Of a stretch of 64,000 nucleotides of DNA, positions 19,731-64,000 are shown piece after piece (position 1 is the first letter of the stretch; every line of letters starts with the position of its first letter). Where the stretch lies: NCBI RefSeq assembly GCF_056746865.1, contig NZ_CM163382.1. The stretch is one strand, 5' to 3'. The position numbers and the translations under genes are program-made. The notes below the pieces were generated by a model. That model did no database searches, was not told the origin of the DNA, and worked only from the letters and a program-made list of their open reading frames with translations.

Positions 19731-21358
19731 CTGTTCGACCTCTCCCCGTCCCAGGGTATCTGGACAAAAAATTGTGTGAAAATCCCGGGTTCCGATTCCA
19801 CGGCGATGCTGCCGCCGAGATTTTCTACCTGTTGTTTGACAAGTGCTAAACCGACGCCTCGCTCGCTTCCTTTTGTCGAGACACCTTTGTCAAAAATGTG
19901 ATCGATTTTGTCGGGTGCGATCCCCGGTCCATCATCGTTAACTTCACAGTGCAGCCAGCCGTGACGGTAGTGCAATGTTACGCTAATTTCGCCTCCGGGT
20001 TCCGGCCCTAATGCTTCCAGCGCGTTTTCTATCAGATTTCCCAATGTGGTAATCAGCGTCGCGACCTGGTCCTCACTGCCGCTGTCTGGCAGTTGGCTTT
20101 CACTGTTTAAAATCAGCGTATGGCCTAAATCGGTCGCGCGGTTAATCTTGCTGATTAAAAAACCAGCGATAACCGGAGATTTGATCTTACCCAGCAGAGA
20201 GCCAATCTCTTCCTGATAGTTATTGGCTGTTTTGAGAATGTAATCTTCCAACTGCTTATAACTCTTCAGATGCAATAATCCGAGAATCACATGCAATTTA
20301 TTCATAAATTCGTGGGATCGTTCACGAAGTGCGTCAGCATAGTTGACCAGACCGTCGAGTCGCTGCATCAGTTTACGTACTTCAGTTTTGTCTCTGAAGG
20401 TTGAAATGGCACCGATGATAACGCCATTACTGCGCACCGGAACGGTGTTGATCAGTAATAGCCGGTCTTTAATCGTAATCTCTTCGTCGCGGCGCGGCGT
20501 ACCGTCGCGTAACACTTCCGAGACATCTACTACCTGTGACCACGAGTGGCTTAGCGTCGACAGCTTCTCATCGTCCTGCGACTTACGGTAATTCAGCAAT
20601 TCTTGTGCGGCATCGTTGATCAGCGTGACTTCACCGCGATCGTCCACGGCAACGACGCCTTCTTTGATGGACTGCAACATGGCCTGGCGCTGCTCAAACA
20701 GCGTGGAGATTTCGTAGGGTTCCAGGCCAAAAAGAATTTTTTTCAGTACTTTAACCAGAATGCAGGTGCCAATCAGTCCGACCAGCATGCCAAATAATAC
20801 CGACCAGATAATGCTCCAGCGACTGTCATTGATCTGTTGGGTCACGCGGCTTAACTCAAGGCCGATCGCCACCACGCCAATTTGCTTATGATTTTCATCG
20901 TAGATGGGGGTAAATACGCGTAAAGCCTGCGCCAGAAAACCGCGATTGATAGCGACATTTTCTTCGCCATTCAGCGCTTTAAGGATGTCATCACCTTTAA
21001 ATGGCTGACCAATACGCTGGGCTTCAGGATGCGAGTAGCGAAGACTTTGCATATCGGTAACGACAATAAACAGCAGATCGTTGCGTTTGCGCACGGCTTC
21101 CGCGATGGCCTGGATGCCGCTCTCCTGCGGTTTTTTCTGCAAGCCCTGACGGATTTCCGGCGAGTCGGCGAGGGTACGCGCCACCGCCAGTGCCTTGTTG
21201 GCTAGCCCGTCTCGCGTCATATCACTGATTTGCGAGAAGTAAATCAGATGCACCACCAATAGCACCGAGAACAGTACCGCGCTGACCATTAAGATCACAG
21301 TGGTACTCAATTTCATCGGACGTTTGCGTAACATGCGGTAGGGCAATGAATGTCTCAT
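19727..21358 (-). CDS. dcuS: Sensor histidine kinase DcuS
   Basis: 543-aa ORF with two TM segments, periplasmic PAS-like domain and kinase core. Confidence 0.95.
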   Translation of the reverse strand: MRHSLPYRMLRKRPMKLSTTVILMVSAVLFSVLLVVHLIYFSQISDMTRDGLANKALAVARTLADSPEIRQGLQKKPQESGIQAIAEAVRKRNDLLFIVVTDMQSLRYSHPEAQRIGQPFKGDDILKALNGEENVAINRGFLAQALRVFTPIYDENHKQIGVVAIGLELSRVTQQINDSRWSIIWSVLFGMLVGLIGTCILVKVLKKILFGLEPYEISTLFEQRQAMLQSIKEGVVAVDDRGEVTLINDAAQELLNYRKSQDDEKLSTLSHSWSQVVDVSEVLRDGTPRRDEEITIKDRLLLINTVPVRSNGVIIGAISTFRDKTEVRKLMQRLDGLVNYADALRERSHEFMNKLHVILGLLHLKSYKQLEDYILKTANNYQEEIGSLLGKIKSPVIAGFLISKINRATDLGHTLILNSESQLPDSGSEDQVATLITTLGNLIENALEALGPEPGGEISVTLHYRHGWLHCEVNDDGPGIAPDKIDHIFDKGVSTKGSERGVGLALVKQQVENLGGSIAVESEPGIFTQFFVQIPWDGERSNR

Positions 21359-46833: not shown

Positions 46834-47188
46834 TTTTGTTACCTCGCGCTGTCAATGGAAGTAGTACCTCATCCGATATCTGAAAATGTTTTCCGGTGGA
46901 TGTTACAGCGAATTTCATGTAAGACATGTTGTTGTCGGTATTGTTCAGTACTGTGCGTTGTGAGCGTATTCGTTATCAGACAGAGGGGCAGGGAACAAAT
47001 GGCGTAAACGGACATCTCAGTGCCTGAGAAACAGTACAGGTCAGGCCATCATGGCCTGCAAACAGAGCCCTGGCGACCCCGTGGCCGAAAACGAAACAAT
47101 AACCCGCGCGCAGTGCGAGGAATCCGGATGTGAAGCAATCAGCAGGTAATATTAATGGCAGGACCAGCAGGTTCTTTAAACAAACGAA

Positions 47189-47951
47189 GGTGGTGACTCC
47201 AATTAGTAGAACATATATTTTTCGATAAAGGCACCGATGACTTTTTCATGAAGTTCTACAGAGCGCGAGAAACAGATAGTTCTGCGGGCCAGACGTTTGA
47301 TTCGGGTTCTCAGAGGTAGATGTTGCGCTCAATGCGCTGAGTAAAAATCTTACCAGTCAGATGCTTCTCCTTCGGTAACTCTCTGGTGTAACTACCCCAT
47401 TCGTCAGTGGTCAACATACCGATGGTAAAAGGGCAAGCAGCGCCAGCAATTCACGACAGGTTTAATCAGTCCGTAGGCCAAAAGTGTAGGCCAGAACGCC
47501 ACCAGTTTTCGTGTTGTACGTGTACCAGAGCCAGTGCTGTCGCGCTTTACTGCCGACAAAACTCCATTGCTCATCAAGTTCGCAGATGAGTGCCATATCA
47601 GCATGAGCGACCGGGTATGACGTTATTCTTCGTGGCGAGAGTTTTTTAAAGTCCGGATGACAGTATTAATGCCGATTTTCAGCGTACGGGCAGTATCGCG
47701 AACTCCGGCACCGTTGAAAGCCATTTCAGTGATTTGCTCTTTAACTCCCGGTTTACGGGCCTCGTAACGGTAAGTGAGCTGAAGCACTCGATGACAGTCA
47801 CGGCAGCGAAATCGATCATGTCCTTTGGGTTCTTCCCGTGACGGTAAACCTGAACGGACTGGCAACAGGAGCAATGAAGGTTAACTGTGACCATGAAAGA
47901 ACCTTAAAAGTGGCTATTATACTCCTAATTCAACTAATTGGAGTCATTACC
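47189..47951 (-). mobile_element. IS1-family insertion sequence (divergent isoform), insB apparently degenerate
   Basis: Terminal inverted repeats ggtggtgactccaatt (47189-47204) and ggtaatgactccaatt (rc of 47936-47951); length 763 bp; insA intact; conserved TTAAAAAAC frameshift motif at insA end; InsB-like translation needs at least two further frame changes. Confidence 0.75.
47623..47874 (-). CDS. insA: IS1-family InsA (zinc-finger/HTH transposition regulator)
   Basis: 83-aa ORF with CxxC…CxxC zinc finger and C-terminal HTH resembling IS1 InsA (…GINTVIRTLKNS…). Confidence 0.8.
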   Translation of the reverse strand: MLLLPVRSGLPSREEPKGHDRFRCRDCHRVLQLTYRYEARKPGVKEQITEMAFNGAGVRDTARTLKIGINTVIRTLKNSRHEE

Positions 47952-49329
47952 GTATTCATAATGGATTAGGTTCAGCAGTTGCTGAAGTGCTTGTAGAAAC
48001 TTGTCCTGTGCCCATGCGTCGGGTGGGGGTTAAAGAGCGGTATGGCCAGGTTGAAACTCAGGACTTTTTACAGAGAGAGTACGGGTTAACCGCGCAAGCT
48101 ATTGTGGCGGCAGCCAGAGAGCTATTGTAATTCATGGAGTTTGTTTACCATTCTGTTTTTCTTAAAAGTGAGTGTCTGTGCGGTCACTAAACTCGGTAAT
48201 AAAGCAGTTCATTGCAGGATAAGAAGCGTTTGGTTGTGTCGTTTTACCGTAAGAACCGACCGCCGTATGTATCCATTAAGCCAGTATTGGTAACGTAGGT
48301 GCCCACCTTTTCAAACTGGTGGGCGCCTGTTATGGAGCAAAAACATTATCCGCAGAACCCCGCAGATCATTTTCAAATGAGTTAAACTTCAAATGGTTAA
48401 ACTGGCTTTGCAACCAGGAGCCTCTGTTGCCCGTATTGCCCGGGAACACGATATCAATGATAACCTCCTGTTCAAATGGCTCAGACTCTGGCAGAACGTA
48501 AGGTAAAGGGAGATGAAAAAGGCAATAGCAGAACTGAGTGACAGTGAAACCATTCTGGCGTACAGGGTTGGATGGTGAAACTGATAAAAAAACCCTCTGA
48601 AAATTCTGTCAGAGGGTGTAGTCAAAAATGGTAGATATTTACGATGCAGTAATGCTTTCACTCCGGTAATTAATTTCCGTGATTAACTGCTTTCGATCAA
48701 TAAAGGAATTGCAAAAGTGTGATCTTGTTCACGACATCGTGGATGATAATATGCCTGATGTCTGAATCCGGAAACAGTGCTCTGGCGGGTTTCATGTGAA
48801 GTTGACGGATAAAAAATCCGCACGACCAGACAGACGTGCGGTTTACGAAATTCGTAACAAGAGGCTTTTCTACGGATCACGTGGTGCGTGCCACGTGAAA
48901 TTTTTGTAGCGCAAAATGTGCAATGTGTAAATACAAGGAAGGAAAAAAGTTAAATTGGTAGAAGTCCATGCCTGCCACATGTACGTCTGCATTCCTCGTT
49001 TTGAACAGAATTCTCACCAGACATCGTGAATTTCTCATTCAATCATCAGAGATATTAACCAGGATTTTTATTGTTTTGTGATATCAGCAGTGCAGGTATA
49101 CAGACGTTAAAGTAATCAGGTTTATTATAACCACCTTTACAAAGTTGTATATGTTTATAATTTAATGATTTTAATGCCAGTCGTTTTCTGCTGCTTAAAT
49201 TGAGGTCGCATATTATACACAATAATATTCTTAGCATTATTAAATTAATAAGAGAGGATTCTTATCACTGTATTTTTGCTCCGCACTACCGTTCTGGCTG
49301 GTGAAGTAATAATACAGGAGAATAACAGA

Positions 49330-50871
49330 ATGCTTAAAAGACGTGATGCTTTTTTAAAGAAAAGCGCGCTGGCAGTGAGTGTGGCCCTGCTGCTCTCGGC
49401 TCAGGCTCAGGCTGTTTTGACAGGGCCTGTTGATGGTAATTCTTCCAGCTTACTGATTGGAGAAAACTCTTTTATTACGAATTTAACTGGTACAGTTAAT
49501 AACACTTTCCTTTTGGGAGGTGGCGCTTTTAACCTGGATTCACCAGGAAGTCTTCAGTTTGGCTCTTTTTCGGAAGTGTATAATTCTCCACACAGTGTCA
49601 CCCTGGGAAGGGATGCCGGTCAGGCTGAGTCAAAATATGGTGTTGCCATAGGTAAGAGCGCTGAGGTATTTAATTCACAGCATAGTGTTGCTATTGGGGG
49701 ATGGGCTGGAATAGAAAATTCTTCAGGCTCTGTAGCTCTGGGCCATGGCTCACAGGTGTCGGGAGAAAATAACGTGGTATCTGTTGGTGCCGGGCCTGAG
49801 GGATATGGAAAGAGTGTCAAAGGAGCACCGGAAACCCGCCGGATTATAAATGTGTCTGATGGTATCAATAACACAGATGCAGCGACGGTAGGGCAACTGA
49901 ATGAACGATTTGATGATGCACAGGTCTTTTTGTTGCAGACGAATGAAAGAATTGACGAGACAGATAAACGTCTTTCAACAGTTCATGCTGAACTCAGCAG
50001 GGATATTATTGCAGGCACATCGGCAGCGGTGACGTATACAGATGTAACAGCGCTTGCACTTCAGGATGAGATAAAGGATGGGACGAACAAAGTACGTGAT
50101 GAGTTGAAATCACAGGGAGACAGTCTGCGTGGTGAGATAGGCGGTGTATACAGAGATGCCCGTGCTCATACTGACAGTCAGGTCACAGCAGTACGTGATG
50201 AACTGAAGGCAGAGGGAGACAGTCTGCGCGGTGAGATAGGCGGTGTATACAGAGATGCCCGTGCTCATACTGACAGTCAGGTCACAGCAGTACGTGATGA
50301 ACTCAGCAGGGATATTATTGCAGGCACATCGGCAGCGGTGGCGTATACGGATGCATCTTCTCTTGCTCTTCAGGATGAAATAAAAGAAAAAGCGGATGAA
50401 ACAGTTCAGGTTTCCCGGGCTTATACAGATAAAAGTGTACGGGATGCCCGTAAAGAAGCGAAAAGCCAGGCAGAACATCTCAGCGATGTGCTTGTGAAGA
50501 ACAGGGCGCAGACGGATGCAGCAATAGCCTCAAATACAGCAGCGATAAGGAATAACAGTCATCGTCTGGATTTGACGGAAGCCTGGCAGAAGATGGCGAC
50601 AGAGAGAATGAATAATATGCAGGAGCAGATTAAAGAGAACCGGAAGGAGTTAAGGGAGAGTGCAGCCCAGAGCGCGGCACTGGCCGGTCTTTTCCAGCCA
50701 TACAGTGTTGGAAAATTTAACGCGACAGCAGCCGTTGGTGGTTACCGTGATGAGCAGGCCATTGCGGTGGGCGTGGGCTACCGTTTCACAGAGAATGTGG
50801 CAGGAAAAGTTGCAGTTGCTGCAGGTGGGTCATCCGCATCGTGGAATGCTGGTGTGAATTTTGAGTTCTGA
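49330..50871 (+). CDS. Trimeric autotransporter adhesin (YadA-like C-terminal anchor) with repeat-containing coiled-coil stalk
   Basis: ORF 49276..50871 trimmed to [28 protein letters not shown] (signal peptide); YadA-type head repeats (SVAIG/ VSVGAG), coiled-coil stalk, C-terminal beta-barrel anchor ending …AGVNFEF. Confidence 0.8.
50115..50312 (+). repeat. Tandem 99-bp (33-aa) direct duplication inside the adhesin stalk
   Basis: Units beginning gggagacagtctgcg at 50115 and 50214, encoding [30 protein letters not shown] twice; flanked by a second, more distant repeat pair ([12 protein letters not shown]…LALQDEIK). Confidence 0.8.
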
Positions 50872-50909
50872 CAGGTCAGGATTTAGATATCTGTCCCGGG
50901 GGGAGTCCC

Positions 50910-52248
50910 CATAAGCGCTAACTTAAGGGTTGTGGTATTACGCCTGATATGATTTAACGTGCCGATGAATTACTCTCACGATAACTGGTCAGCAATTCTG
51001 GCCCATATTGGTAAGCCCGAAGAACTGGATACTTCGGCACGTAATGCCGGGGCTCTAACCCGCCGCCGCGAAATTCGTGATGCTGCAACTCTGCTACGTC
51101 TGGGGCTGGCTTACGGCCCCGGGGGGATGTCATTACGTGAAGTCACTGCATGGGCTCAGCTCCATGACGTTGCAACATTATCTGACGTGGCTCTCCTGAA
51201 GCGGCTGCGGAATGCCGCCGACTGGTTTGGCATACTTGCCGCACAAACACTTGCTGTACGCGCCGCAGTTACGGGTTGTACAAGCGGAAAGAGATTGCGT
51301 CTTGTCGATGGAACAGCAATCAGTGCGCCCGGGGGCGGCAGCGCTGAATGGCGACTACATATGGGATATGATCCTCATACCTGTCAGTTCACTGATTTTG
51401 AGCTAACCGACAGCAGAGACGCTGAACGGCTGGACCGATTTGCGCAAACGGCAGACGAGATACGCATTGCTGACCGGGGATTCGGTTCGCGTCCCGAATG
51501 TATCCGCTCACTTGCTTTTGGAGAAGCTGATTATATCGTCCGGGTTCACTGGCGAGGATTGCGCTGGTTAACTGCAGAAGGAATGCGCTTTGACATGATG
51601 GGTTTTCTGCGCGGGCTGGATTGCGGTAAGAACGGTGAAACCACTGTAATGATAGGCAATTCAGGTAATAAAAAAGCCGGAGCTCCTTTTCCGGCACGTC
51701 TCATTGCCGTATCACTTCCTCCCGAAAAAGCATTAATCAGTAAAACCCGACTGCTCAGCGAGAATCGTCGAAAAGGACGAGTAGTTCAGGCGGAAACGCT
51801 GGAAGCAGCGGGCCATGTGCTATTGCTAACATCATTACCGGAAGATGAATATTCAGCAGAGCAAGTGGCTGATTGTTACCGTCTGCGATGGCAAATTGAA
51901 CTGGCTTTTAAGCGGCTCAAAAGTTTGCTGCACCTGGATGCTTTGCGTGCAAAGGAACCTGAACTCGCGAAAGCGTGGATATTTGCTAATCTACTCGCCG
52001 CATTTTTAATTGACGACATAATCCAGCCATCGCTGGATTTCCCCCCCAGAAGTGCCGGATCCGAAAAGAAGAACTAACTCGTTGTGGAGAATAACAAAAA
52101 TGGTCATCTGGAGCTTACAGGTGGCCATTCGTGGGACAGTATCCCTGACAGCCTACAAAACGCAATTGAAGAACGCGAGGCATCGTCTTAACGAGGCACC
52201 GAGGCGTCGCATTCTTCAGATGGTTCAACCCTTAAGTTAGCGCTTATG
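50910..52248 (+). mobile_element. IS186 (IS4 family), apparently intact, with ~10-bp target site duplication
   Basis: Termini CATAAGCGCTAACTTAAGGG (50910-) and inverted copy ending 52248; flanking direct repeat ggggagtccc at 50900-50909 and 52249-52258 within a GC-rich palindrome. Confidence 0.9.
50959..52077 (+). CDS. IS186 transposase
   Basis: 372-aa ORF MPMNYSHDNWSAILAHIGKPEELDTSARNAG… matching recalled IS186 transposase. Confidence 0.9.
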   Translation: MPMNYSHDNWSAILAHIGKPEELDTSARNAGALTRRREIRDAATLLRLGLAYGPGGMSLREVTAWAQLHDVATLSDVALLKRLRNAADWFGILAAQTLAVRAAVTGCTSGKRLRLVDGTAISAPGGGSAEWRLHMGYDPHTCQFTDFELTDSRDAERLDRFAQTADEIRIADRGFGSRPECIRSLAFGEADYIVRVHWRGLRWLTAEGMRFDMMGFLRGLDCGKNGETTVMIGNSGNKKAGAPFPARLIAVSLPPEKALISKTRLLSENRRKGRVVQAETLEAAGHVLLLTSLPEDEYSAEQVADCYRLRWQIELAFKRLKSLLHLDALRAKEPELAKAWIFANLLAAFLIDDIIQPSLDFPPRSAGSEKKN

Positions 52249-52281
52249 GGGGAGTCCCCCGGGATATAATGAGGTACAGAG

Positions 52282-52737
52282 ATGCTGGATATAATCCTGG
52301 CGACGAGAGATATTTATTTTGAAAAAGCCCTGCGAGAGGTATTTGGAACCGTAAGCAGTCGAATCAGATATATAGAAGATGCCATATCAGACAGAAGAAG
52401 GGTGCAGTCAGGCAGGTCATTCAGATATTATTTTGTATTCTGTGATGATGAGTATACAGATATTGTTCGTATTCTTTTTACCGGAGAGGCCTGCTGTATT
52501 CTGAATAAGTCGATGCTGAATCTGAGAGCGGCCGGAGGTGTGTTGACGCTGGAAGAGCGCAGAGCGGTACTGAACCGGTATTACAGAGGTTTAAGTATTG
52601 CGGAGATTACAGAAGAGACGGGGCAGAATGACAAGACGGTATACGGTCATCTTCGTCGTGCACTGCAGCGGTCTGGATTCCGGAAGGGGCGTTTTATAAA
52701 GGGGAGAGAAGCGGCGGGGGATTCAGGTGTTGAATAA
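52282..52737 (+). CDS. Putative transcriptional regulator with C-terminal LuxR/sigma-70 region-4-like HTH
   Basis: 151-aa ORF; C-terminal LTLEERRAVLNRYYRGLSIAEITEETGQNDKTVYGHLRRALQR; GAGG-like RBS (gaggtacagagATG). Confidence 0.6.
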   Translation: MLDIILATRDIYFEKALREVFGTVSSRIRYIEDAISDRRRVQSGRSFRYYFVFCDDEYTDIVRILFTGEACCILNKSMLNLRAAGGVLTLEERRAVLNRYYRGLSIAEITEETGQNDKTVYGHLRRALQRSGFRKGRFIKGREAAGDSGVE

Positions 52738-53053
52738 TGTATCTTATATTGTGATATCGGTGCTGCTGCTGTTATTTTTTGTTGTATTTGTGACGAATGG
52801 TTAAGAATAAAACATGAGTTGGTGATTATCAGGACAGGTTGCTTGTATATGAAGATAACAAAGGCGGCATTTATTTTTGCGCTGTCAGTGTGGAGTGTTG
52901 CTGTGATATGTCTTTTATTATTTGTACTGGTTGTTCTGGGATAGCCATAGTGAAATAAAAAGCTGTCTGAATTAAATTATTTTGAACACATATTTTAATT
53001 CTGCACTAAATTCAGAATGACCCTGTAAATAATTCTGTGTAACTGCCGCCGTA

Positions 53054-54261
53054 TTAAAGGTGCTCGCTAAGGCGGTCACCGAACTCGATAATAAAACGGC
53101 TCATTGCCAGCCGCCAGTTCTGGATTGGCATACTCCATTTTTTGACGCCGACTGTATCGCCAGATAAATCACTTTTCGCACCGAGTCGTCCGTTGGGAAC
53201 ACCTTGCGCTTCTTTATCGCCTGCCGAATGACACTGTTCAGCGATTCGATGGCATTCGTCGTGTAGATGGCCTTGCGGATATCCGGTGGGTAACCGAAGA
53301 AGGTGTTGAGATTTTCCCAGTGTGTGCGCCAGCTCTTGCTGATTTGCGGGTATTTTTCATCCCAGACGCCTGCAAACTTATCCAACGCCATCAACGCCGT
53401 TTCCTCTGTCGGGGCCTGATATACCGCTTTCAGCCCGCTGGTGACGGCTTTGTAATCCTTCCACGACACGAATTTCAGGCTGTTGCGCACCATATGGATG
53501 ATGCAGAGCTGAATATGCGTCTGCGGGTACACGCTATTTATCGCTTCCGGGAAGCCTTTCAGGCCGTCCACGAAGGCGATAAGGATATCGTTCAGGCCGC
53601 GATTTTTCAGTTCCGTCAGTACATTCAGCCAGAACTTTGCACCTTCATTTTCGGCCAGCCACATATCCAGCAGCTCTTTCTGACCGTCGGTATTGATGCC
53701 CAGCGCGAGGAACACCGCTTTGTTAATGACACTCCCGCTGTGACGAACCTTAACCACAATACAGTCAAGATAAACAATGGGATACAGTGCATCCAACGGT
53801 CGGTTTTGCCATTCAGAGACCTGTTCTTTAACCGCATCGGTCACTTTGGATATCAGCGTGGGCGAGACATCGGCGTCGTACATTTCTTTGAAGGCTGAGG
53901 TAATTTCGCGGGTAGTCATCCCTCTGGCATACAGCGCCAGGATCTGGTTGTCCATGCCGGTAATGCGGGTCTGATTTTTCTTCACCAGTTGTGGTTCGAA
54001 GGTATTTTCACGGTCACGCGGCGTGTTAAGTTCGATCTCGCCATCATCGCACAATACCGTTTTTGACGAGTAGCCATTACGGGTATTAGAGCCTGATTTA
54101 GGAGCATTTTTCTCATGACCTAGATGGTCAGTCAGTTCTGCATTGAGCGCCGTTTCGACGGTAAGCTTTGTCAACATGCGTGAAAACTGGTTGAGGTCGG
54201 CTTCGGTTTTAAGGCCTTTGGCCAGTTCAGCCGCAAGGACTTTAAGTTTCTTTTCGTCCAT
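53054..54261 (-). pseudogene. IS256-family transposase, frameshifted near C-terminus
   Basis: ORF 53101..54261 matches IS256/mutator-type transposase; conserved C-terminal tail KKWSMPIQNWRLAMSRFIIEFGDRL is in another frame after a T/A homopolymer near 53117-53127. Confidence 0.8.
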
Positions 54262-54429
54262 CGTTTGCCTGTCTCCGTTGTTGGAGTGAACATATCAAAA
54301 ACAGGCAATTACACAATTTTAATTACAGTCTCTTCAGAATGGGTAATCAGTGACCGTCCTGACGGTCACTTTAAAGAAAATGCATATTACACAGAATGGT
54401 AAACAGGCTCAACATAGAGCTTGAAGGTA

Positions 54430-55058
54430 GTTGTTGCCTTGTAATAAAATGTGTGATTCATAGACATCGTTTCAATTTTCTCAGTTCAAGTTCAGGCTTG
54501 TAATTCTGTTCCTGTATATGCTCTTCATTGGGCTGATAGTTTGCATGAACGGCATCGGAGTATGGTGTTTTCTCAGCAAGTTCAAAGTAGCGTTCCATCG
54601 GAGTTTTACCGTTGTGAGCGCTATGAGGACGTTCCCTGTTATAGTAATGCTACCATTCTGCTAGCAATCCCTTCAGGTCATCAGCAGAAAGATCTACGGT
54701 AGCGTAAAACTCAGCTTTGTCTGTCTTTTGGGAACGTCCAACCTTTATTACATCAGGCGACAACTACCTTGAAAAACGCCGTTACTCACCGATCCCCTTC
54801 ACGGTAATACGCACTATTGCCAGTGAGATTGAATGAAGTCGTTTTAACTCGCTTTGAATACGTCTTGCACCCAGATTTCGCTGAGAACGTAACTTCCAGA
54901 ATCAGAGCGACTTCGCAAGTGCTGGTTTTCGTTGATGGTGAACGCTTGGAGCGACGGCTGTAGCTTTCCAGACCAGCGATGCCCTGAGCCAGATATCTGC
55001 GCCACCATTTACACAATGTGGGCCGAGAAGTGCCACAGTGACGGCATACAAATGTCAA
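54430..55058 (-). pseudogene. IS481/IS3-superfamily transposase remnant (N-terminal HTH fragment and C-terminal integrase-core fragment)
   Basis: 54786..55058 encodes …RPTLCKWWRRYLAQGIAGLESYSRRSKRSP… (HTH); 54430..54660 encodes …YYNRERPHSAHNGKTPMERY… (DDE core tail); internal deletion and in-frame stop. Confidence 0.5.
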
Positions 55059-55101
55059 CGACGGATGAAAAGTGGCTCTTACGCAACCTGGATGGAGATT
55101 T

Positions 55102-56119
55102 TCATGCCAGTGGACTCATGACCCTCTGCCTGAGTAGTTCAAATCCGGCTCGACCATACATCTGGCCTTTCAGCATTTTTAGTCGATTTACATGACTTTC
55201 GACAACCCCCATTATTCCAGCGACTGCTGATTGCCTCACATATAGCCGCAGCATCAGCTGCCATCCTTGCAGCCACGCGCCGAAGTTACCACTTTCTCGT
55301 TGCTCTTTTAACCACTCCCTCCATGGGGCCAGAAGTCCTCGCTCTGGAGGCCGGGTTGACATTTCAGGGAATGTTCCTGAACACACCCAGAGACTGACTG
55401 TCACACGTGATAAGCCTGTAATACGGGATATTTCCCCTGAACCCACATCCCTTGTTATGTAGTGCCATAACCTCTGTCCAACGCTGATGCCGTTTTTGGC
55501 GGGTTTGCTGTTTAAGGCGTTCCGGACGACGGAGCGATGCTACAGGCACAGACAGTACTGGCTTAGGTGATTTCTTTGGTGACAACCCACTGGCAACAAG
55601 ACGTATCAGAGGCATCTGTCTGTACATCATTCGTTCAGGCGCATCGCCAATATTTTTTAGCAGGTGCCATCGATCAGCTATCTGTCTGGCCTGAGGTGCA
55701 CCTTCACGTGCTGCTGTCGCATAGACTCCGCCACGGTCACGTGAGACAACCTGTATTTCCGGATATTTTCTGAACCAGGTCGCCAGCGTACTCTGATCGC
55801 AACCGGGAAGCAGGACGAGGGGACGGTGAGTATCAAGATTGACGATTAACGTGCCGTAATGGTGGCCCCGATGCCACGCCCACTCATCAATACCGACATG
55901 AGGCGCGCCCGACTGTTTCGTCTCCGGGGTATTAATAACCCTGCGAAGAAGAGTATCAGCACTGCAACGTAGCCCCACTGCCGTTGCTGCCTGTTTCCCG
56001 GCCTCACCTCCGGCTATTAATCCCGGTTGACGTTGTAAATTTTGTAACGCCTGTGAATACTGCTGATGTGAACTGTGAAGGGAGGCTGAGACTCGGCAAA
56101 ATTTTTCGTTAACAGGCAA
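55102..56119 (-). pseudogene. ISL3-family transposase, N-terminally truncated and frameshifted
   Basis: ORFs 55364..56119 and 55102..55446 in different frames; motifs DRWHLLKNIGDA and C-terminal VNRLKMLKGQMYGRAGFELLRQRV typical of ISL3 family. Confidence 0.6.
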
Positions 56120-56545
56120 GGGTTATGGCAGCACCAGAGTAAGATGCGTCTGGGCTGAGCAGGGTAAGTGCTGTATCTGGAGGCGATGGCATCTATGAAC
56201 TGAGTAGCTGTGCTTAAGGTATTCAACACATAGTGCTGTTTTGCATTTTCCGGGGAGATGGAGGGTTATATACCGTCAGAGCTAATAACTTCTTGACCGT
56301 ATTGCCATCAGCAAAGTAACCGTAGAAATCTCTTAAGTGAGTGTATTAAGTTACCCATAACTTAAAACGGCTTCACTGGTAAGCCTCATACATTTTCTTT
56401 CACTCAAGTTGTGGAAGCCCTCTTTCGTCGAACCGTTCGTTATAAATGCAAAAGATGTATGCTGACCCTCTCAAAGCCGAAATCATACAGAGTTTATGGA
56501 AAAGTGGTGAACCAGTCGCGTCGAAAGTAGATTGAGCTCATATCA

Positions 56546-57739
56546 TTACTTGCTTTTGCAGCAGCGCCAGATAAATACAGTCACCATGCTAAATAATACA
56601 GCGGCAAATAATGCCATCACAATCAGTGCTATTGCGACACCTGTTTTCGACACCAATGGTACCAACAACGCGCAAAGCCCATAGCCAAGTGTGTGACTGC
56701 AAGCGAGCCAGCCCGCGCCTGCGCCGTCGGCCAGCTTATCATTCAGTAAAAGTTGATAAGCGGGGGTTGCCAGAGCAGCTCCAAATGACAGCACTGCACA
56801 GCCTAGGTAAAACAACCATAGCTGTTCAGCGAGCATGATAGCCAGACCACTACTCATCAACACCCCGGCACTCAGGAGCAGAGCCACTGGAGTCAGGCGC
56901 TGTGGACGGAGTACCACGAACTGCGCGATAAGCGCAGCTATTGCGGACAGCCCCAACAACCACGCTACCTGTTGGCTAATAGTGGTGGTATCAGTGGCGA
57001 ACTGGCGAGTAAGGGCTGGAGAAAGTCCAAGCTGCATCATGCTCATTGCCGCAGCCAGTAACATTGCGCAAAGCAGATAAGGCAGGAAATCCCGCTTCAG
57101 GCTGACGCTCTTGCGCTCCGGTGTGGGCTGTGGTGGTGTGCCGGGCAACCGCAGAAGCATCACCAGTGCCAGCGCTGGCGCTGCCATCAGCATCCACACT
57201 GGCGCCAGAGGGTGAATGACCAACATTGCCGCCGCGCACAGCGGCCCGAATAGCCTGCCGCAGCTCAGGCCGGAGCTGATGGTTGCCAGAGCGGCCATGC
57301 GATTCCCATCTCCCGCTCTCTGCAATGCCCAGACCTGACAGGCTGGCACCATTGCTGACACGGTCAGACCGTAGACGATCCGGGCGATGATTAATATTCC
57401 CAACCCCACCGCTTTTGTTACGGCACCGGTAGCCATCAGCACGCTTCCCAGCCCAAGCAGGGTAAAGCTTACGCCATATCCTCCCAGAGCCCACAGCACC
57501 ACAGTCTTACTGCCAGTAAGGGAAATTTGCTTTCCCCACCATGGGGAAGATGGCAGAAACAGCATTGAGCCCAGCATCAGCAGGGCAGCCCATACAGACA
57601 GACTCAGATTTGTCTGTATGACCAGAACAGGGAGTACAACCAGCAGACCGTTCTGTCCGATACCGAGAAGACCGGCACTGAACGCCAGTGGCCAGCAGGA
57701 CAGGGTTTTTTGGGGCGTATCTTCGATCTTAGATGACAT
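56546..57739 (-). CDS. shiF: MFS transporter ShiF (aerobactin-locus associated)
   Basis: 397-aa 12-TM ORF divergent from iucA, as in aerobactin islands. Confidence 0.85.
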   Translation of the reverse strand: MSSKIEDTPQKTLSCWPLAFSAGLLGIGQNGLLVVLPVLVIQTNLSLSVWAALLMLGSMLFLPSSPWWGKQISLTGSKTVVLWALGGYGVSFTLLGLGSVLMATGAVTKAVGLGILIIARIVYGLTVSAMVPACQVWALQRAGDGNRMAALATISSGLSCGRLFGPLCAAAMLVIHPLAPVWMLMAAPALALVMLLRLPGTPPQPTPERKSVSLKRDFLPYLLCAMLLAAAMSMMQLGLSPALTRQFATDTTTISQQVAWLLGLSAIAALIAQFVVLRPQRLTPVALLLSAGVLMSSGLAIMLAEQLWLFYLGCAVLSFGAALATPAYQLLLNDKLADGAGAGWLACSHTLGYGLCALLVPLVSKTGVAIALIVMALFAAVLFSMVTVFIWRCCKSK

Positions 57740-57813
57740 TGTAATGTTTCAACACCATGTATTAATTGTGTTTATTTGTAAAATTAATTTTTCTGACAAT
57801 AACATTTCTCATT

Positions 57814-57832
57814 GATAATGATAATCATTATT
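57814..57832 (+). promoter_or_regulatory. Fur box in aerobactin promoter
   Basis: gataatgataatcattatt matches Fur consensus GATAATGATAATCATTATC at 18 of 19 positions; 40 bp upstream of iucA start. Confidence 0.8.
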
Positions 57833-57874
57833 GACATAATTGTTATTATTTTACTGTGTAGGAGCTGTTTGATT

Positions 57875-59599
57875 ATGATCCTGCCCTCTGAAAAATCCGC
57901 CACAGATGTGGCTGCGCAGTGCTTCCTGAATGCCTTGATTCGTGAAACCAAAGACTGGCAACTGGCGGAATACCCGCCAGACGAATTGATTATCCCGCTG
58001 GACGAACAGAAGTCGCTCCATTTCAGAGTGGCTTATTTCTCCCCAACCCAGCATCACTGCTTTGCATTTCCTGCTCATCTGGTCACGGCATCAGGCAGTT
58101 ATCCTGTCGATTTTACCACTCTCTCCCGGCTTATTATTGACAAGCTCCGGCATCAACTTTTTCTGCCAGTTCCCCTCTGCGAAACTTTCCACCAACGCGT
58201 GCTGGAAAGCTACGCCCATACGCAACAGACAATTGATGCCCGCCATGACTGGGCCATCCTGCGTGAGAAAGCGTTGAATTTTGGCGAGGCTGAGCAGGCA
58301 CTGCTGACAGGACACGCTTTCCACCCTGCACCTAAGTCTCATGAACCGTTTAACCGCCAGGAAGCTGAACGATACCTGCCTGACATGGCACCTCACTTCC
58401 CGCTGCGGTGGTTTTCGGTGGATAAAACGCAAATCGCTGGTGAAAGTCTGCATCTTAACCTTCAACAGCGGTTGACGCGATTTGCCGCAGAAAATGCGCC
58501 CCAGTTACTCAACGAATTAAGTGACAATCAATGGCTGTTCCCGCTGCACCCGTGGCAGGGAGAATATCTTTTGCAGCAGGTGTGGTGCCAGGCACTTTTT
58601 GCTAAAGGACTTATCAGAGACTTAGGCGAGGCCGGCACGTCGTGGCTGCCGACCACCTCTTCCCGCTCCCTCTACTGTGCTACCAGCCGCGATATGATCA
58701 AGTTCTCCCTGAGCGTTCGGCTGACCAACTCCGTCCGTACTCTGTCTGTGAAAGAGGTGGAGCGAGGAATGCGCCTGGCACGTCTGGCGCAAACCGACGG
58801 CTGGCAGATGCTACAGGCCCGCTTCCCTACTTTCCGGGTAATGCAGGAGGACGGCTGGGCCGGGCTGCGCGATCTTAACGGCAACATCATGCAGGAAAGT
58901 TTGTTTTCCCTGCGTGAAAACCTGCTGCTGGAGCAGCCGCAAAGCCAGACCAACGTTCTGGTTTCCCTGACTCAGGCCGCACCGGATGGCGGTGATTCGC
59001 TGCTGGTTTCGGCGGTAAAACGCCTGAGCGATCGCCTCGGTATCACTGTGCAACAGGCCGCCCACGCATGGGTCGATGCTTACTGTCAGCAGGTGCTGAA
59101 GCCTCTGTTTACGGCTGAAGCGGATTACGGCCTGGTGCTGCTGGCGCATCAGCAAAATATTCTTGTGCAGATGCTTGGGGATCTGCCGGTCGGATTTATT
59201 TACCGTGACTGCCAGGGCAGCGCGTTTATGCCTCACGCGACAGAGTGGCTCGATACCATTGACGAGGCGCAGGCGGAAAATATTTTCACCCGTGAGCAGT
59301 TGCTGCGCTATTTCCCTTATTACCTGCTGGTTAACTCCACTTTTGCCGTAACTGCTGCGCTGGGTGCTGCCGGGCTGGACAGCGAAGCGAATCTGATGGC
59401 TCGTGTACGAACATTGCTGGCTGAAGTGCGTGACCAGGTGACTCATAAAACCTGTCTCAACTATGTTCTGGAAAGTCCGTACTGGAACGTAAAAGGTAAC
59501 TTTTTCTGTTATCTGAACGATCATAACGAGAACACCATCGTTGACCCTTCGGTGATCTATTTTGATTTCGCTAACCCGCTGCAGGCTCAGGAGGTCTGA
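57875..59599 (+). CDS. iucA: Aerobactin synthetase IucA (NIS synthetase)
   Basis: ORF 57812..59599 trimmed to MILPSEKSATDVAAQCF… with GGAG RBS; IucA/IucC family. Confidence 0.93.
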   Translation: MILPSEKSATDVAAQCFLNALIRETKDWQLAEYPPDELIIPLDEQKSLHFRVAYFSPTQHHCFAFPAHLVTASGSYPVDFTTLSRLIIDKLRHQLFLPVPLCETFHQRVLESYAHTQQTIDARHDWAILREKALNFGEAEQALLTGHAFHPAPKSHEPFNRQEAERYLPDMAPHFPLRWFSVDKTQIAGESLHLNLQQRLTRFAAENAPQLLNELSDNQWLFPLHPWQGEYLLQQVWCQALFAKGLIRDLGEAGTSWLPTTSSRSLYCATSRDMIKFSLSVRLTNSVRTLSVKEVERGMRLARLAQTDGWQMLQARFPTFRVMQEDGWAGLRDLNGNIMQESLFSLRENLLLEQPQSQTNVLVSLTQAAPDGGDSLLVSAVKRLSDRLGITVQQAAHAWVDAYCQQVLKPLFTAEADYGLVLLAHQQNILVQMLGDLPVGFIYRDCQGSAFMPHATEWLDTIDEAQAENIFTREQLLRYFPYYLLVNSTFAVTAALGAAGLDSEANLMARVRTLLAEVRDQVTHKTCLNYVLESPYWNVKGNFFCYLNDHNENTIVDPSVIYFDFANPLQAQEV

Positions 59600-60547
59600 A
59601 TGTCTGGGGCAAACATTGTTCACAGCGGATATGGACTGCGCTGTGAAAAACTCGACAAGCCTCTGAATCTTGGCTGGGGGCTGGACAATAGCGCGGTGTT
59701 GCACTGGCCCGGGGAGCTGCCAACAGGATGGCTGTGCGACGCGCTGGATCAGATATTTATCGCCGCACCACAACTTTCAGCAGTGGTTCTTCCCTGGTCC
59801 GAATGGTGTGAGGAGCCACAGGCGCTGACGCTTTTCGGACAGGTACAAAGCGACATTATCCATCGTTCCGCTTTCTGGCAGTTACCGTTATGGCTGAGTT
59901 CTCCGGCAAACCGGGCCTCCGGTGAAATGGTTTTTGATGCAGAGCGTGAGATTTATTTCCCGCAGCGCCCCCCCCGTCCGCAGGGTGAAGTTTATCGTCG
60001 TTACGATCCACGCATTCGCAGGATGCTGAGTTTCCGCATTGCCGATCCCGTTTCTGATGCAGAACGTTTCACTCGCTGGATGAACGATCCGCGCGTTGAG
60101 TATTTCTGGGAGCAAAGTGGCTCACTGGAGGTACAGATCGCCTATCTGGAACGCCAGCTCACCAGTAAACATGCATTCCCGCTGATTGGTTGTTTCGACG
60201 ATCGGCCGTTCAGTTATTTCGAAATCTACTGGGCGGCGGAAGACCGCATTGGTCGCCACTATTCGTGGCAGCCCTTTGACCGTGGCCTGCATCTGCTGGT
60301 TGGTGAACAGCAATGGCGCGGAGCCCACTATGTGCAAAGCTGGCTGCGCGGGGTGACACATTACCTGCTGCTGAATGAGCCACGTACGCAGCGCACAGTA
60401 CTGGAGCCACGCACCGATAACCAGCGCCTGTTCCGCCATCTTGAGCCTGCGGGATACCGGACAATTAAAGAGTTCGACTTCCCACATAAACGCTCGCGCA
60501 TGGTGATGGCGGATCGTCATCACTTCTTCACGGAGGTCGGTCTGTAA
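59600..60547 (+). CDS. iucB: N6-hydroxylysine acetyltransferase IucB
   Basis: 315-aa ORF in operon position 2. Confidence 0.93.
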   Translation: MSGANIVHSGYGLRCEKLDKPLNLGWGLDNSAVLHWPGELPTGWLCDALDQIFIAAPQLSAVVLPWSEWCEEPQALTLFGQVQSDIIHRSAFWQLPLWLSSPANRASGEMVFDAEREIYFPQRPPRPQGEVYRRYDPRIRRMLSFRIADPVSDAERFTRWMNDPRVEYFWEQSGSLEVQIAYLERQLTSKHAFPLIGCFDDRPFSYFEIYWAAEDRIGRHYSWQPFDRGLHLLVGEQQWRGAHYVQSWLRGVTHYLLLNEPRTQRTVLEPRTDNQRLFRHLEPAGYRTIKEFDFPHKRSRMVMADRHHFFTEVGL

Positions 60548-62289
60548 TGAATCACAAAGACTGGGATTTGGTCAACCGCCGCTTGGTGGCAAAAATGTTG
60601 TCTGAGCTGGAGTATGAGCAGGTTTTCCACGCGGAATCTCAGGGCGATGACCGCTACTGCATTAACCTGCCGGGAGCACAATGGCGCTTCATCGCTGAAC
60701 GTGGTATCTGGGGCTGGCTCTGGATTGATGCTCAAACTCTGCGCTGCGCGGACGAGCCAGTACTGGCTCAGACGCTGCTGATGCAGCTAAAGCAGGTACT
60801 GTCAATGAGCGATGCAACCGTTGCTGAGCATATGCAGGATTTGTATTCCACGCTGCTGGGCGACCTGCAACTGCTGAAAGCCCGTCGCGGGCTGAGCGCC
60901 AGTGACCTGATTAATCTTAGTGCCGACCGCCTGCAATGCCTGCTGAGCGGTCATCCTAAATTCGTTTTTAATAAAGGTCGCCGTGGCTGGGGTAAAGAGG
61001 CGCTGGAACGATATGCGCCAGAGTATGCCAACACCTTTAGACTGCACTGGCTGGCGGTAAAACGTGAACATATGATCTGGCGCTGTGATAACGAGATGGA
61101 TATTCATCAGTTGTTGACGGCCGCAATGGATCCGCAGGAGTTTGCCCGCTTCAGTCAGGTCTGGCAGGAAAACGGACTGGATCATAACTGGCTGCCGCTG
61201 CCTGTACATCCGTGGCAGTGGCAGCAAAAAATCGCCACCGACTTCATCGCTGATTTTGCCGAAGGCAGGATGGTGTCTCTCGGCGAGTTTGGCGACCAGT
61301 GGCTCGCCCAGCAGTCGCTGCGTACCCTGACCAACGCCAGTCGCCGGGGTGGGCTGGATATCAAGCTGCCGCTGACCATCTACAACACCTCATGCTACCG
61401 GGGGATTCCTGGCAGATACATCGCTGCCGGACCACTGGCTTCACGCTGGCTACAACAGGTTTTTGCGACCGACGCTACCCTGGTGCAAAGCGGTGCAGTG
61501 ATCCTTGGTGAACCGGCTGCAGGCTATGTCTCCCATGAAGGCTATGCCGCGCTTGCCCGGGCTCCCTATCGCTACCAGGAAATGCTTGGTGTTATCTGGC
61601 GGGAGAATCCGTGCCGCTGGCTGAAACCGGATGAAAGTCCGGTTCTGATGGCAACACTGATGGAGTGCGACGAAAACGATCAGCCGCTGGCAGGCGCATA
61701 TATAGACCGCTCCGGGCTGGACGCTGAAACCTGGCTTACGCAACTGTTCCGGGTGGTCGTGGTTCCTCTGTATCACCTGCTTTGCCGCTACGGTGTCGCG
61801 CTTATTGCACATGGACAAAATATAACGCTCGCCATGAAAAAGGGGGTTCCACAGCGTGTTCTGCTGAAAGACTTCCAGGGCGATATGCGGCTGGTGAAAG
61901 AAGAGTTCCCCGAAATGGACTCTTTGCCTCAGGAGGTTCGTGATGTTACATCCCGCCTGAGTGCGGACTACTTAATCCATGATTTGCAGACGGGTCACTT
62001 CGTGACAGTACTGCGTTTTATTTCGCCACTGATGGTTCGTCTTGGCGTACCTGAACGGCGATTTTATCAACTGCTGGCAGCAGTGTTGAGTGATTACATG
62101 AAAAAACATCCACAAATGTCAGAGCGTTTTGCGCTTTTCTCACTTTTCAGGCCACAAATCATTCGCGTGGTGCTGAACCCGGTAAAACTGACCTGGCCTG
62201 ATCTGGATGGCGGCAGCCGCATGCTGCCGAATTACCTTGAGGATCTGCAAAATCCGCTGTGGCTGGTAACTCAGGAATATGAATCATGA
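60547..62289 (+). CDS. iucC: Aerobactin synthetase IucC
   Basis: 580-aa NIS synthetase paralogous to IucA. Confidence 0.93.
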   Translation: MNHKDWDLVNRRLVAKMLSELEYEQVFHAESQGDDRYCINLPGAQWRFIAERGIWGWLWIDAQTLRCADEPVLAQTLLMQLKQVLSMSDATVAEHMQDLYSTLLGDLQLLKARRGLSASDLINLSADRLQCLLSGHPKFVFNKGRRGWGKEALERYAPEYANTFRLHWLAVKREHMIWRCDNEMDIHQLLTAAMDPQEFARFSQVWQENGLDHNWLPLPVHPWQWQQKIATDFIADFAEGRMVSLGEFGDQWLAQQSLRTLTNASRRGGLDIKLPLTIYNTSCYRGIPGRYIAAGPLASRWLQQVFATDATLVQSGAVILGEPAAGYVSHEGYAALARAPYRYQEMLGVIWRENPCRWLKPDESPVLMATLMECDENDQPLAGAYIDRSGLDAETWLTQLFRVVVVPLYHLLCRYGVALIAHGQNITLAMKKGVPQRVLLKDFQGDMRLVKEEFPEMDSLPQEVRDVTSRLSADYLIHDLQTGHFVTVLRFISPLMVRLGVPERRFYQLLAAVLSDYMKKHPQMSERFALFSLFRPQIIRVVLNPVKLTWPDLDGGSRMLPNYLEDLQNPLWLVTQEYES

Positions 62290-63563
62290 AAAAAAGTGTC
62301 GATTTTATTGGTGTAGGGACAGGGCCATTTAATCTCAGCATTGCTGCGTTGTCACATCAGATCGAAGAACTGGACTGTCTCTTCTTTGATGAACATCCTC
62401 ATTTTTCCTGGCATCCGGGTATGCTGGTACCGGATTGTCATATGCAGACCGTCTTTCTGAAAGATCTGGTCAGTGCTGTTGCACCTACAAATCCCTACAG
62501 CTTTGTTAACTATCTGGTGAAGCACAAAAAGTTCTATCGCTTCCTTACAAGCAGACTACGTACAGTATCCCGTGAAGAGTTTTCTGACTACCTCCGCTGG
62601 GCTGCTGAAGATATGAATAACCTGTATTTCAGTCATACCGTTGAAAACATTGATTTCGATAAAAAACGTCGATTGTTTCTGGTGCAAACCAGCCGGGGAG
62701 AATATTTTGCCCACAATATCTGCCTTGGTACAGGAAAACAACCTTATTTACCACCCTGTGTGAAGCATATGACACAATCCTGTTTCCATGCCAGTGAAAT
62801 GAATCTTCGTCGGCCGGACCTTAGTGAAAAACGGGTAACCGTGGTTGGTGGAGGACAGAGTGGTGCAGACCTGTTCCTTAATGCATTACGCGGGGAATGG
62901 GGAGAAGCGGCGGAAATAAACTGGATCTCCCGGCGGAATAATTTTAACGCACTGGATGAGGCTGCTTTTGCTGATGAGTATTTTACACCTGAATATATTT
63001 CAGGCTTCTCCGGACTGGAGGAAGATATTCGCCATCAGTTACTGGATGAGCAGAAAATGACATCGGATGGCATCACTGCCGATTCTTTACTGACCATTTA
63101 TCGTGAGTTGTACCACCGTTTTGAAGTTCTGAGAAAACCAAGAAATATCCGTCTGCTACCCAGCCGCTCGGTAACAACTCTGGAAAGTAGTGGTCCTGGC
63201 TGGAAGTTGCTGATGGAGCATCATCTGGATCAGGGCAGGGAGAGCCTGGAAAGTGATGTGGTGATTTTCGCCACAGGTTACCGTTCTGCGTTGCCACAAA
63301 TACTTCCCTCACTGATGCCGCTGATCACCATGCACGATAAGAACACCTTTAAAGTGCGTGATGACTTCACTCTGGAATGGAGTGGCCCGAAAGAGAACAA
63401 CATCTTCGTGGTCAACGCCAGTATGCAAACCCATGGCATCGCCGAACCTCAGCTCAGCCTGATGGCATGGAGATCTGCACGTATTCTTAATCGTGTAATG
63501 GGACGTGATTTATTCGATCTCAGTATGCCGCCCGCCCTGATTCAGTGGCGCAGCGGCACCTAG
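62286..63563 (+). CDS. iucD: L-lysine N6-monooxygenase IucD (FAD/NADPH)
   Basis: 425-aa ORF with N-terminal GxGxxN dinucleotide motif (IGVGTGPFNLS). Confidence 0.93.
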   Translation: MKKSVDFIGVGTGPFNLSIAALSHQIEELDCLFFDEHPHFSWHPGMLVPDCHMQTVFLKDLVSAVAPTNPYSFVNYLVKHKKFYRFLTSRLRTVSREEFSDYLRWAAEDMNNLYFSHTVENIDFDKKRRLFLVQTSRGEYFAHNICLGTGKQPYLPPCVKHMTQSCFHASEMNLRRPDLSEKRVTVVGGGQSGADLFLNALRGEWGEAAEINWISRRNNFNALDEAAFADEYFTPEYISGFSGLEEDIRHQLLDEQKMTSDGITADSLLTIYRELYHRFEVLRKPRNIRLLPSRSVTTLESSGPGWKLLMEHHLDQGRESLESDVVIFATGYRSALPQILPSLMPLITMHDKNTFKVRDDFTLEWSGPKENNIFVVNASMQTHGIAEPQLSLMAWRSARILNRVMGRDLFDLSMPPALIQWRSGT

Positions 63564-63644
63564 GGAAAACGCAGCCGGAGGCTGCTTCTTTAACTCGCTA
63601 CACAGCATCTTTGGGCTGATTTTTTCCGCCCGTGTGGAGGAATA

Positions 63645-64000
63645 ATGATGATAAGCAAAAAGTATACGCTTTGGGCTCTCAACCCACTGCTTCTTACCAT
63701 GATGGCGCCAGCAGTCGCTCAACAAACCGATGATGAAACGTTCGTGGTGTCTGCCAACCGCAGCAATCGCACCGTAGCGGAGATGGCACAAACCACCTGG
63801 GTTATCGAAAACGCCGAACTGGAACAGCAGATTCAGGGCGGCAAAGAGCTTAAGGACGCACTGGCTCAGCTGATCCCTGGCCTTGACGTCAGCAGCCGGA
63901 GCCGCACCAACTACGGTATGAATGTGCGTGGCCGCCCGCTGGTCGTGCTGGTTGACGGCGTGCGTCTCAACTCTTCACGTACCGACAGCCGACAACTGGA
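63645..64000 (+). CDS. iutA: Ferric aerobactin TonB-dependent receptor IutA (5' part only; continues past window end)
   Basis: MMISKKYTLWALNPLLLTMMAPAVAQQTDDETFVVSANRS… signal peptide plus TonB-box region; open to window end. Confidence 0.85.
   Translation, partial: MMISKKYTLWALNPLLLTMMAPAVAQQTDDETFVVSANRSNRTVAEMAQTTWVIENAELEQQIQGGKELKDALAQLIPGLDVSSRSRTNYGMNVRGRPLVVLVDGVRLNSSRTDSRQL

Follow-up and report, generated by a model that had tools for sequence, protein, structure and literature searches.

Trimeric autotransporter adhesins (TAAs) of type Vc are held in the outer membrane by a 12-strand barrel to which each of three chains contributes four C-terminal beta-strands, and their passengers traverse this barrel to form a trimeric coiled-coil stalk. 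In Yersinia YadA the stalk has short 15-residue repeats whose number sets its length, and alleles of Saa show a comparable length polymorphism, varying in the number of a ~37-aa repeat near the C-terminus. Here we describe a TAA gene at positions 49330-50871 of a 64,000-nucleotide stretch of contig NZ_CM163382.1 (assembly GCF_056746865.1), hereafter the window. Among characterised proteins, the Eib proteins of Escherichia coli (EibA, C, D, E, F and G) stand closest to it, and it appears to be a relative and not a member of that group. We regard it as an intact but uncharacterised Eib-related gene of a well-known class with a well-known kind of stalk repeat variation, and a literature search found no paper describing it.

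Comparison with related alleles indicates that the window carries the commonest state, with two stalk units, of a population-wide in-frame polymorphism in stalk length, combined with swapping of head-tip cassettes. The best overall explanation, in which we have high confidence, is that the gene encodes a type Vc surface adhesin whose stalk length is polymorphic in frame, and not that it carries a one-off recent duplication. The locus adds one more case to a well-known theme, that of trimeric autotransporter stalks which vary in length through repeats.

Stalk repeats and their copy number among alleles

The stalk region contains two inner units, B1 and B2, enclosed by a diverged outer pair, A and A':

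49976..50078, plus strand: outer repeat A (repeat search, direct comparison)
50091..50189, plus strand: stalk unit B1, 99 nt/33 aa, 'KSQ' type (repeat searches, direct comparison)
50190..50288, plus strand: stalk unit B2, 99 nt/33 aa, 'KAE' type (repeat searches, direct comparison)
50285..50387, plus strand: outer repeat A' (repeat search; partner for a 309-nt deletion in strain Ch1)

Tandem Repeats Finder reported a 99-nt period at 50091-50303 with 2.2 copies, 94% matches, no indels and a score of 384. The first-pass annotation of the window had described a perfect-looking and recent 99-bp tandem duplication within an A-B-B-A' pattern. The pattern is confirmed, with the outer repeats lying around B1-B2 as direct repeats 309 nt apart that match at 89 of 103 nt (86%), and this layout is real and far beyond chance. 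The tandem pair itself exists at 50091-50288 but is not perfect: B1 and B2 agree at 93 of 99 nt (94%) and 31 of 33 residues (KSQ versus KAE), with mismatches at unit positions 13, 14, 19, 20, 23 and 40 and an identical final 59 nt.

Allele lengths and unit counts come from the closest 120 protein clusters. One, two and three B units, respectively, are found in the clusters of 480, 513 and 546 aa and likewise in those of 482-484, 515-517 and 548-550 aa, and the 555- and 557-aa clusters have four. The 410-aa clusters have none; they are without the A-B-B segment, and A is joined straight to the tail of A', exactly the product expected of an exchange between A and A'. The largest clusters with two units are P0014 (107 contigs) and P0017 (92 contigs), followed by P0027 (54 contigs) and P0042 (45 contigs) for one unit and P0003 (18 contigs) and P0036 (15 contigs) for three. 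Arrays seen among the alleles are [KSQ], [KAE], [KSQ,KAE], [KAE,KAE], [KSQ,KAE,KAE] and [KAE,KAE,KAE]; at the nucleotide level the three-unit alleles read B1-B2-B2', with a single nucleotide difference. These are the properties of an in-frame variable-number tandem repeat in a surface protein. The differences in copy number are unlikely to be assembly errors because they form discrete in-frame states in many independent complete genomes.

Two loci capture individual events. The allele of strain Ch1 lacks exactly 309 nt between A and A'. That of AR13438, a human ascites isolate, lacks one clean 99-nt unit and otherwise equals the window at 1443 of 1443 aligned nucleotides in the gene and 850 of 850 upstream, so that the 99-nt change is younger than any point substitution. 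As AR13438 keeps a pure B1 and the 3' 59 nt of B1 and B2 are identical, the simplest reading of the sequences is the loss of one of two units, through slippage or exchange inside this shared stretch, and not a fresh duplication in the window. The expectation that the repeats alter stalk length is therefore borne out by related alleles with zero to four units and by this clean 99-nt indel.

The same one-unit allele, otherwise identical to the window, and the shared 3' 59 nt could also be taken to mean that the two-unit array is a recent, lineage-private duplication, with one-unit alleles ancestral and the array a mere duplication scar. We consider this very unlikely. A fresh copy of B1 would be identical to it, yet B2 differs at 6 nt and 2 aa. 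The KAE unit is common to a diverged lineage with the second head type (head II), and KAE-only arrays exist. In addition, several complete genomes besides this one (isolates of chickens, a kite and humans) have the window's array base for base, and the many isolates with the identical array represent various hosts and countries. The three- and four-unit states together with the 309-nt deletion represent recurrent change in both directions. With the units differing at six positions, the same array present elsewhere and a pure B1 retained in the one-unit allele, the description of the duplication as recent cannot be kept.

Under the preferred reading of a standing length polymorphism, replication slippage or exchange between the near-identical B units would generate alleles with one, two, three or four units, and an exchange between A and A' would cause the loss of 103 codons at one stroke. 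The sequences fit RecA-dependent exchange and replication slippage alike. Because the units are in frame, such events would vary the length of the adhesin and would never switch its gene on or off.

Variation is also found outside the repeats. Two diverged head-tip cassettes (~residues 29-131) exist among the alleles. Alleles of the type found at locus L010 match the window at ~100% outside two stretches: gene nt ~80-400, where identity drops to 41-50%, and a patch at 100-300 nt before the ATG, with 70-79% identity. This points to replacement of the head tip as a cassette by recombination. In window coordinates the cassette differences, seen at the compared loci L010 and L011, lie at 49410-49730 and 49030-49230. 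The alleles also have two alternative connectors between neck and stalk. A 452-aa variant in the avian pathogenic E. coli (APEC) strains IMT5155 and O2-211 has extra B-like units directly after the neck and is without the A repeat:

L005 (APEC IMT5155), 5488-6846: 452-aa variant
L006 (APEC O2-211), 5423-6781: 452-aa variant

Predicted architecture of the adhesin

The gene and the parts of its product are as follows:

49316..49320, plus strand: Shine-Dalgarno sequence AGGAG (read from the sequence, 9 nt before the ATG)
49330..50871, plus strand: trimeric autotransporter adhesin gene (open reading frame, Pfam, NCBIfam, RefSeq WP_000919995.1)
49330..49413, plus strand: putative Sec-type signal peptide, 28 residues (inspection of the translation; cleavage after AQA inferred)
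49398..49413, plus strand: GGCTCA 6-nt repeat, 2.7 copies, coding for AQAQA at the signal-peptide end (tandem-repeat search)
49414..49794, plus strand: predicted YadA-like head, a left-handed parallel beta-roll, residues ~29-155 (AlphaFold2 and Foldseek)
49795..49905, plus strand: predicted neck or collar, residues ~156-192 (sub-threshold YadA_stalk; SadA necks of 2yo0, E = 4.4e-8)
49906..50685, plus strand: predicted coiled-coil stalk, residues ~193-452, ~260 residues (AlphaFold2, hydrophobic period)
50692..50868, plus strand: YadA-like membrane anchor, residues 455-513, four beta-strands per chain (Pfam PF03895, 2lme, AlphaFold2)

The listing of open reading frames (ORFs) gives 513 codons plus a stop at 49330-50871 on the plus strand, and a longer 531-aa frame opens at TTG 49276. 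Translation probably starts at ATG 49330, preferred for the AGGAG 9 nt before it, which would give a 513-aa product ending at 50871. RefSeq has identical coordinates in E. coli PK8276, where the protein (WP_000919995.1) is named 'YadA-like family protein'. By inspection, the signal peptide has a basic n-region (KRR...KK), a hydrophobic core and an AQA cleavage motif, and its residues are constant among alleles except for V18M and an AQ insertion. The GGCTCA copy number differs among alleles, with P0098 and P0114 having one more AQ, which accounts for the length pairs of 482/484, 515/517 and 548/550 aa.

The head and neck were modeled with AlphaFold2 (AF2) from an alignment of head-plus-neck modules of giant TAAs, collected by an exhaustive search in which the module was seen up to 14 times in such proteins. 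The model of residues 29-229, with a mean confidence score (pLDDT) of 91.6, has paired strands at intervals of ~15 residues, followed by a neck rich in loops and a helix, and its beta-roll begins ~12 residues past the signal peptide. In a Foldseek search against PDB, this model matched EibD (2xqh) first (E = 3.9e-8, TM 0.67), with the heads of BpaC, BoaA, YadA (1p9h, E = 1.5e-4), AtaA, CbpF and UspA1 ranking lower. SadA head and neck fragments in PDB match residues 131-201. For residues 190-513, AF2 predicts helices at 194-336 and 341-452, mostly with pLDDT of 76-94, and then four beta-strands, which it places within residues 463-511. The anchor that the first-pass annotation had asked to be verified by profile search is present, as Pfam PF03895 (YadA_anchor) scores 59.5 bits against a cut-off of 22.7 (E = 3.5e-16), and the YadA anchor structure 2lme matches with E = 1.9e-17. 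The NCBIfam YadA model NF033478 aligns with residues 89-512 at 77.5 bits against a cut-off of 750, which places the protein outside Yersinia YadA.

The protein therefore combines the features of a type Vc autotransporter: an anchor, a signal peptide by inspection and a predicted coiled-coil stalk, together with a YadA-like beta-roll head and neck in AF2 and Foldseek, for which the sequence models stay sub-threshold. The ORF, Pfam, NCBIfam, PDB matches and AF2 agree with the 513-aa YadA-type protein with head, stalk and anchor that had been proposed, and the 33-residue units fall inside the predicted coiled coil. As modeled, the architecture is that of a classic single-head 'lollipop' trimeric autotransporter.

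Several observations weigh against parts of this picture. Pfam YadA_head reaches 18.8 bits with a cut-off of 25, and YadA_stalk on residues 171-192 reaches 24.8-26.1 bits with a cut-off of 28.4. With both scores sub-threshold, the assignment of head and neck rests on the predicted fold and on the alignments to SadA and EibD. The AF2 models are single chains from which the handedness of the coiled coil is not readable. The hydrophobic period of 3.67-3.68 over residues 216-352 is suggestive only, being modestly significant (2.2% of shuffles reach that level) and in part imposed by the 33-residue repetition itself. A scan for the sigma-70 consensus on the plus strand upstream of the gene also gave no match.

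A motif of the form GGVYRD (in B) or YTD (in A and A') occurs five times in the stalk, at residues 236, 274, 307, 339 and 365. The sole low-confidence or broken spots of the stalk in AF2, residues 230-237 (50017-50040) and 337-340 (50338-50349), coincide with the 'GTSAAV(T/A)YTD' segments in repeats A and A'. These segments could be local discontinuities of the coiled coil in view of the model.

If the prediction is correct, a single YadA-like beta-roll head would sit at the tip of the trimeric coiled-coil stalk, and each unit of 33 helical residues would contribute ~5 nm of stalk (at ~0.15 nm per helical residue). A period of 3.67 equals 11/3 and fits 33 residues into nine turns, suggesting that gain or loss of a unit may keep both the core register (11/3, hendecad-like) and the rotational setting of the head. 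The most likely function would be adhesion and/or autoaggregation, and possibly serum resistance. Stalk length would then set the projection of the head beyond O-antigen or capsule.

Relation to the Eib proteins and other adhesins

EibD (AF151675; PDB 2xqh, 2xzr) offers the most detailed comparison. At 511 aa it is close in size to the 513-aa protein of the window, and both have a single YadA-like beta-roll head, a neck, a coiled-coil stalk and an anchor. BLASTP aligns the two with 40% identity over the C-terminal 225 aa (E = 6e-40), the anchor being near-identical, so that the conserved C-terminal region of Eib type, with a left-handed coiled coil and anchor, is recognizable by sequence. Within the stalk, the B unit aligns with the EibD segment 'LNRKVGGVYDDVKA', and a GGVYxD-type motif is found in both, GGVYRD here aligning with 'GGVYDD' of EibD. 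Among phage records searched with tblastn, eibD and eibC match at 37.5% over residues 299-488 and eibA at 57% over residues 396-488. No match with at least 95% identity was found in the phage collection, where the Eib prophage genes were the best and matched in the C-terminal part only.

The N-terminal part of the protein differs. In the BLAST comparison with EibD, the N-terminal 298 residues of the adhesin had no detectable similarity and residues 1-308 of EibD were unmatched. EibA, EibD and EibG share an N-terminal domain (PMC12511318). This domain, which precedes the beta-roll, is absent from the adhesin, and at the position of the Eib saddle the predicted helix has a mere 4-residue break. 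A phmmer search against PDB found EibD fragments at E = 0.18 only. Residues 384-418 of EibD, its putative IgG-binding site, are not conserved in the adhesin and align with a 10-residue gap and ~25% identity. The settings of the genes differ as well: eib genes are prophage-borne, while the adhesin gene is flanked by insertion sequence (IS) remnants, a transketolase fragment and the aerobactin locus, or by an operon of phosphotransferase system (PTS) and transketolase genes.

Whether the protein could nevertheless be a true Eib-family immunoglobulin-binding protein, with non-immune binding of IgG or IgA Fc (perhaps of avian immunoglobulins), serum resistance and chain-like aggregation, has to be weighed on these data. 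The C-terminal identity with EibD and EibA, the near-identical anchor, the first rank of 2xqh for the head and neck fold and the alignment of the B unit with the EibD stalk would all fit, as would the weak similarity of the downstream gene to ORF-156D (see below) and the name 'immunoglobulin-binding protein' that some database entries give to close homologues. Such names are annotation and not functional evidence. Given the unmatched N-terminal 298 residues, the phmmer value, the missing N-terminal domain and prophage setting, and the poor alignment at 384-418, we think this function unlikely, though it keeps a real share of the probability. Full Eib membership was rejected on the restriction of EibD homology to the C-terminal 225 aa and the phmmer E of 0.18.

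Enrichment in poultry strains and relatedness to the Eib proteins lead to a related and more speculative idea, in which the adhesin would be an avian-adapted Eib counterpart whose ligand is a host factor of serum or mucosa (for example chicken IgY or IgA, or a complement regulator), with unit number and head cassettes selected to fit O-antigen or capsule and host immunity. We give this a small chance. If true, the gene would be a tunable 'ruler plus cassette' system and not a neutrally drifting repeat.

The other described adhesins are more distant, and the homology to Eib, Saa or UpaG that had been raised for checking was found for Eib in part (C-terminal), and not for Saa or UpaG. Yersinia YadA shares the lollipop architecture, a homologous anchor (2lme) and a head of the same fold (1p9h), but identity is 28-30% and confined to the C-terminal 140-190 residues, and the repeat unit of the adhesin has 33 residues, unlike that of YadA. 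Saa, encoded on plasmid pO113, is also a TAA of ~500 aa; it was rejected at 25.5% identity over 71% of the query in tblastn against plasmids, and is plasmid-borne while the adhesin gene is chromosomal. UpaG, EhaG and SadA are TAAs of 1,000-3,100 aa in which modules homologous to the head-plus-neck are repeated (SadA 2yo0, 2yo3); the adhesin, in comparison, is single-headed, has 513 aa and a different stalk, and matches them short of full length. For APEC, our literature search found eYadA of strain TW-XM (WP_000859812.1; Vet Res 2026, PMC12955052) as the only YadA-like protein with published mutant phenotypes. It was rejected as a counterpart, being encoded by a different gene of 338 aa next to cueR with 22% identity over the anchor region only.

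Genomic setting and distribution

The window is 99.9% identical to the PK8276 genome over 46991-64000 and 93-99% identical further upstream. Flanking the adhesin gene are:

48900..49329, plus strand: AT-rich upstream region with presumed promoter and regulatory sites (33.5% GC)
50910..52248, plus strand: IS421/IS186-type IS, 1339 bp (annotation; 10-bp target duplication)
52282..52737, plus strand: 151-aa protein with a sigma-70 region-4-type helix-turn-helix (HTH) (Pfam Sigma70_r4_2, E = 2.2e-7)

Upstream, the first-pass annotation had reported ~1.3 kb of AT-rich non-coding DNA. This holds for the proximal 430 bp (48900-49329), with 33.5% GC compared to 48.9% for the window overall, but the full 1433 bp from the IS1 remnant to the ATG has 40.8% GC and two annotated pseudogene remnants. 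Preceding the adhesin gene are an IS1 pseudogene (~47205-47896), a transketolase-family gene of which the 3' end is left (~47955-48130) and a transposase fragment (~48319-48494). In light of these remnants at 47205-48494, part of the supposed non-coding stretch is gene debris. The 850 nt upstream of the gene are 99-100% identical at the compared loci L003, L004 and L007-L009 and largely kept at L005, L006 and L010, and the AT-rich region accompanies the gene in all genomic contexts examined. This region and the downstream HTH gene are candidate regulatory elements.

Downstream, IS421 is flanked by the 10-bp target duplication GGGGAGTCCC at 50900-50909 and 52249-52258. It inserted at a GC palindrome (CCCGGGGGGAGTCCCCCGGG) in the 61-bp spacer between the adhesin and HTH genes, which is uninterrupted and links the two genes in AR13438, Ch1, IMT5155 and others (inspected at L003). 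In strain SFE8 (L007), an IS4-family element lies in the same gap in the opposite orientation. IS421 here and the IS4-family element there, in one gap, suggest an insertion hot spot.

The HTH gene adjoins the adhesin gene in every fetched locus examined downstream. Its 151-aa product is 22% identical (E = 2e-4) to ORF-156D, a 156-aa protein encoded downstream of eibD, a likeness that hints at an ancestral two-gene module of adhesin and HTH protein. The HTH protein is a candidate regulator, possibly one dedicated to this adhesin family and the Eib family.

The insertions raise the alternative that the adhesin gene is a decaying remnant on an IS-rich island and has lost expression or function in this strain. 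IS remnants and pseudogenes surround it, IS421 parts it from its HTH partner, the upstream scan gave no consensus promoter match, and among relatives the gene is broken by IS5 in strain PKF11 and truncated to a 5' copy on a plasmid. On the other hand, its ORF is unbroken, follows a good ribosome-binding site and encodes both signal peptide and anchor in full, every copy-number variant is in frame, and the C-terminal 121 residues are unvarying across 12 alleles, which argues for purifying selection. We therefore put only a slim chance on decay and favor an intact adhesin gene.

According to the PK8276 annotation, the aerobactin gene iucA begins ~7 kb downstream of the adhesin gene, and between them lie IS421, the HTH gene, IS256, an integrase fragment, an ISL3 pseudogene and a major facilitator superfamily transporter gene. 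The linkage to aerobactin noted in the first pass is thus correct here, but no aerobactin genes were found within 6 kb on either side of the module in IMT5155 and O2-211. In those two strains, an intact PTS-ascorbate-like/transketolase operon adjoins the module; only a 3' fragment of this operon is left in the window. Their context makes the linkage to aerobactin secondary and lineage-specific, and the location beside the PTS/transketolase genes is probably the older one. A tRNA gene search of the whole window found none.

The 3' half of the gene, encoding stalk and anchor, matches 218 of 5,426 complete E. coli genomes, ~183 of them with at least 95% identity, of which 147 are covered over at least 80% of this half. 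All of the 770 matched places are chromosomal. In an evenly spaced sample of 50 listed matches with at least 95% identity, poultry or birds account for 31 and humans for 8, counts that come without a baseline. Bird-derived matches include chickens, poultry meat and wild birds. APEC and poultry-associated E. coli are of concern to veterinary medicine and the food chain, and only part of their adhesin repertoire is known. The polymorphism in stalk length and head cassette would matter for typing, since short-read assemblies will mis-size the gene, and would be relevant to any use as a vaccine antigen.

A few records depart from the common form. The 115-kb E. coli plasmid NZ_OP290546.1 has at 20312-21146 a truncated copy with the upstream region and the first 168 codons (95-99% identity), annotated as 'Tat pathway signal sequence protein'. 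A plasmid origin of the gene was rejected, since the search turned up no plasmid copy other than this 5' fragment on a single plasmid. The IS5-broken gene of PKF11 is chromosomal (NZ_CP156706.1). In addition, a Salmonella Newport record has a 99% identical copy.

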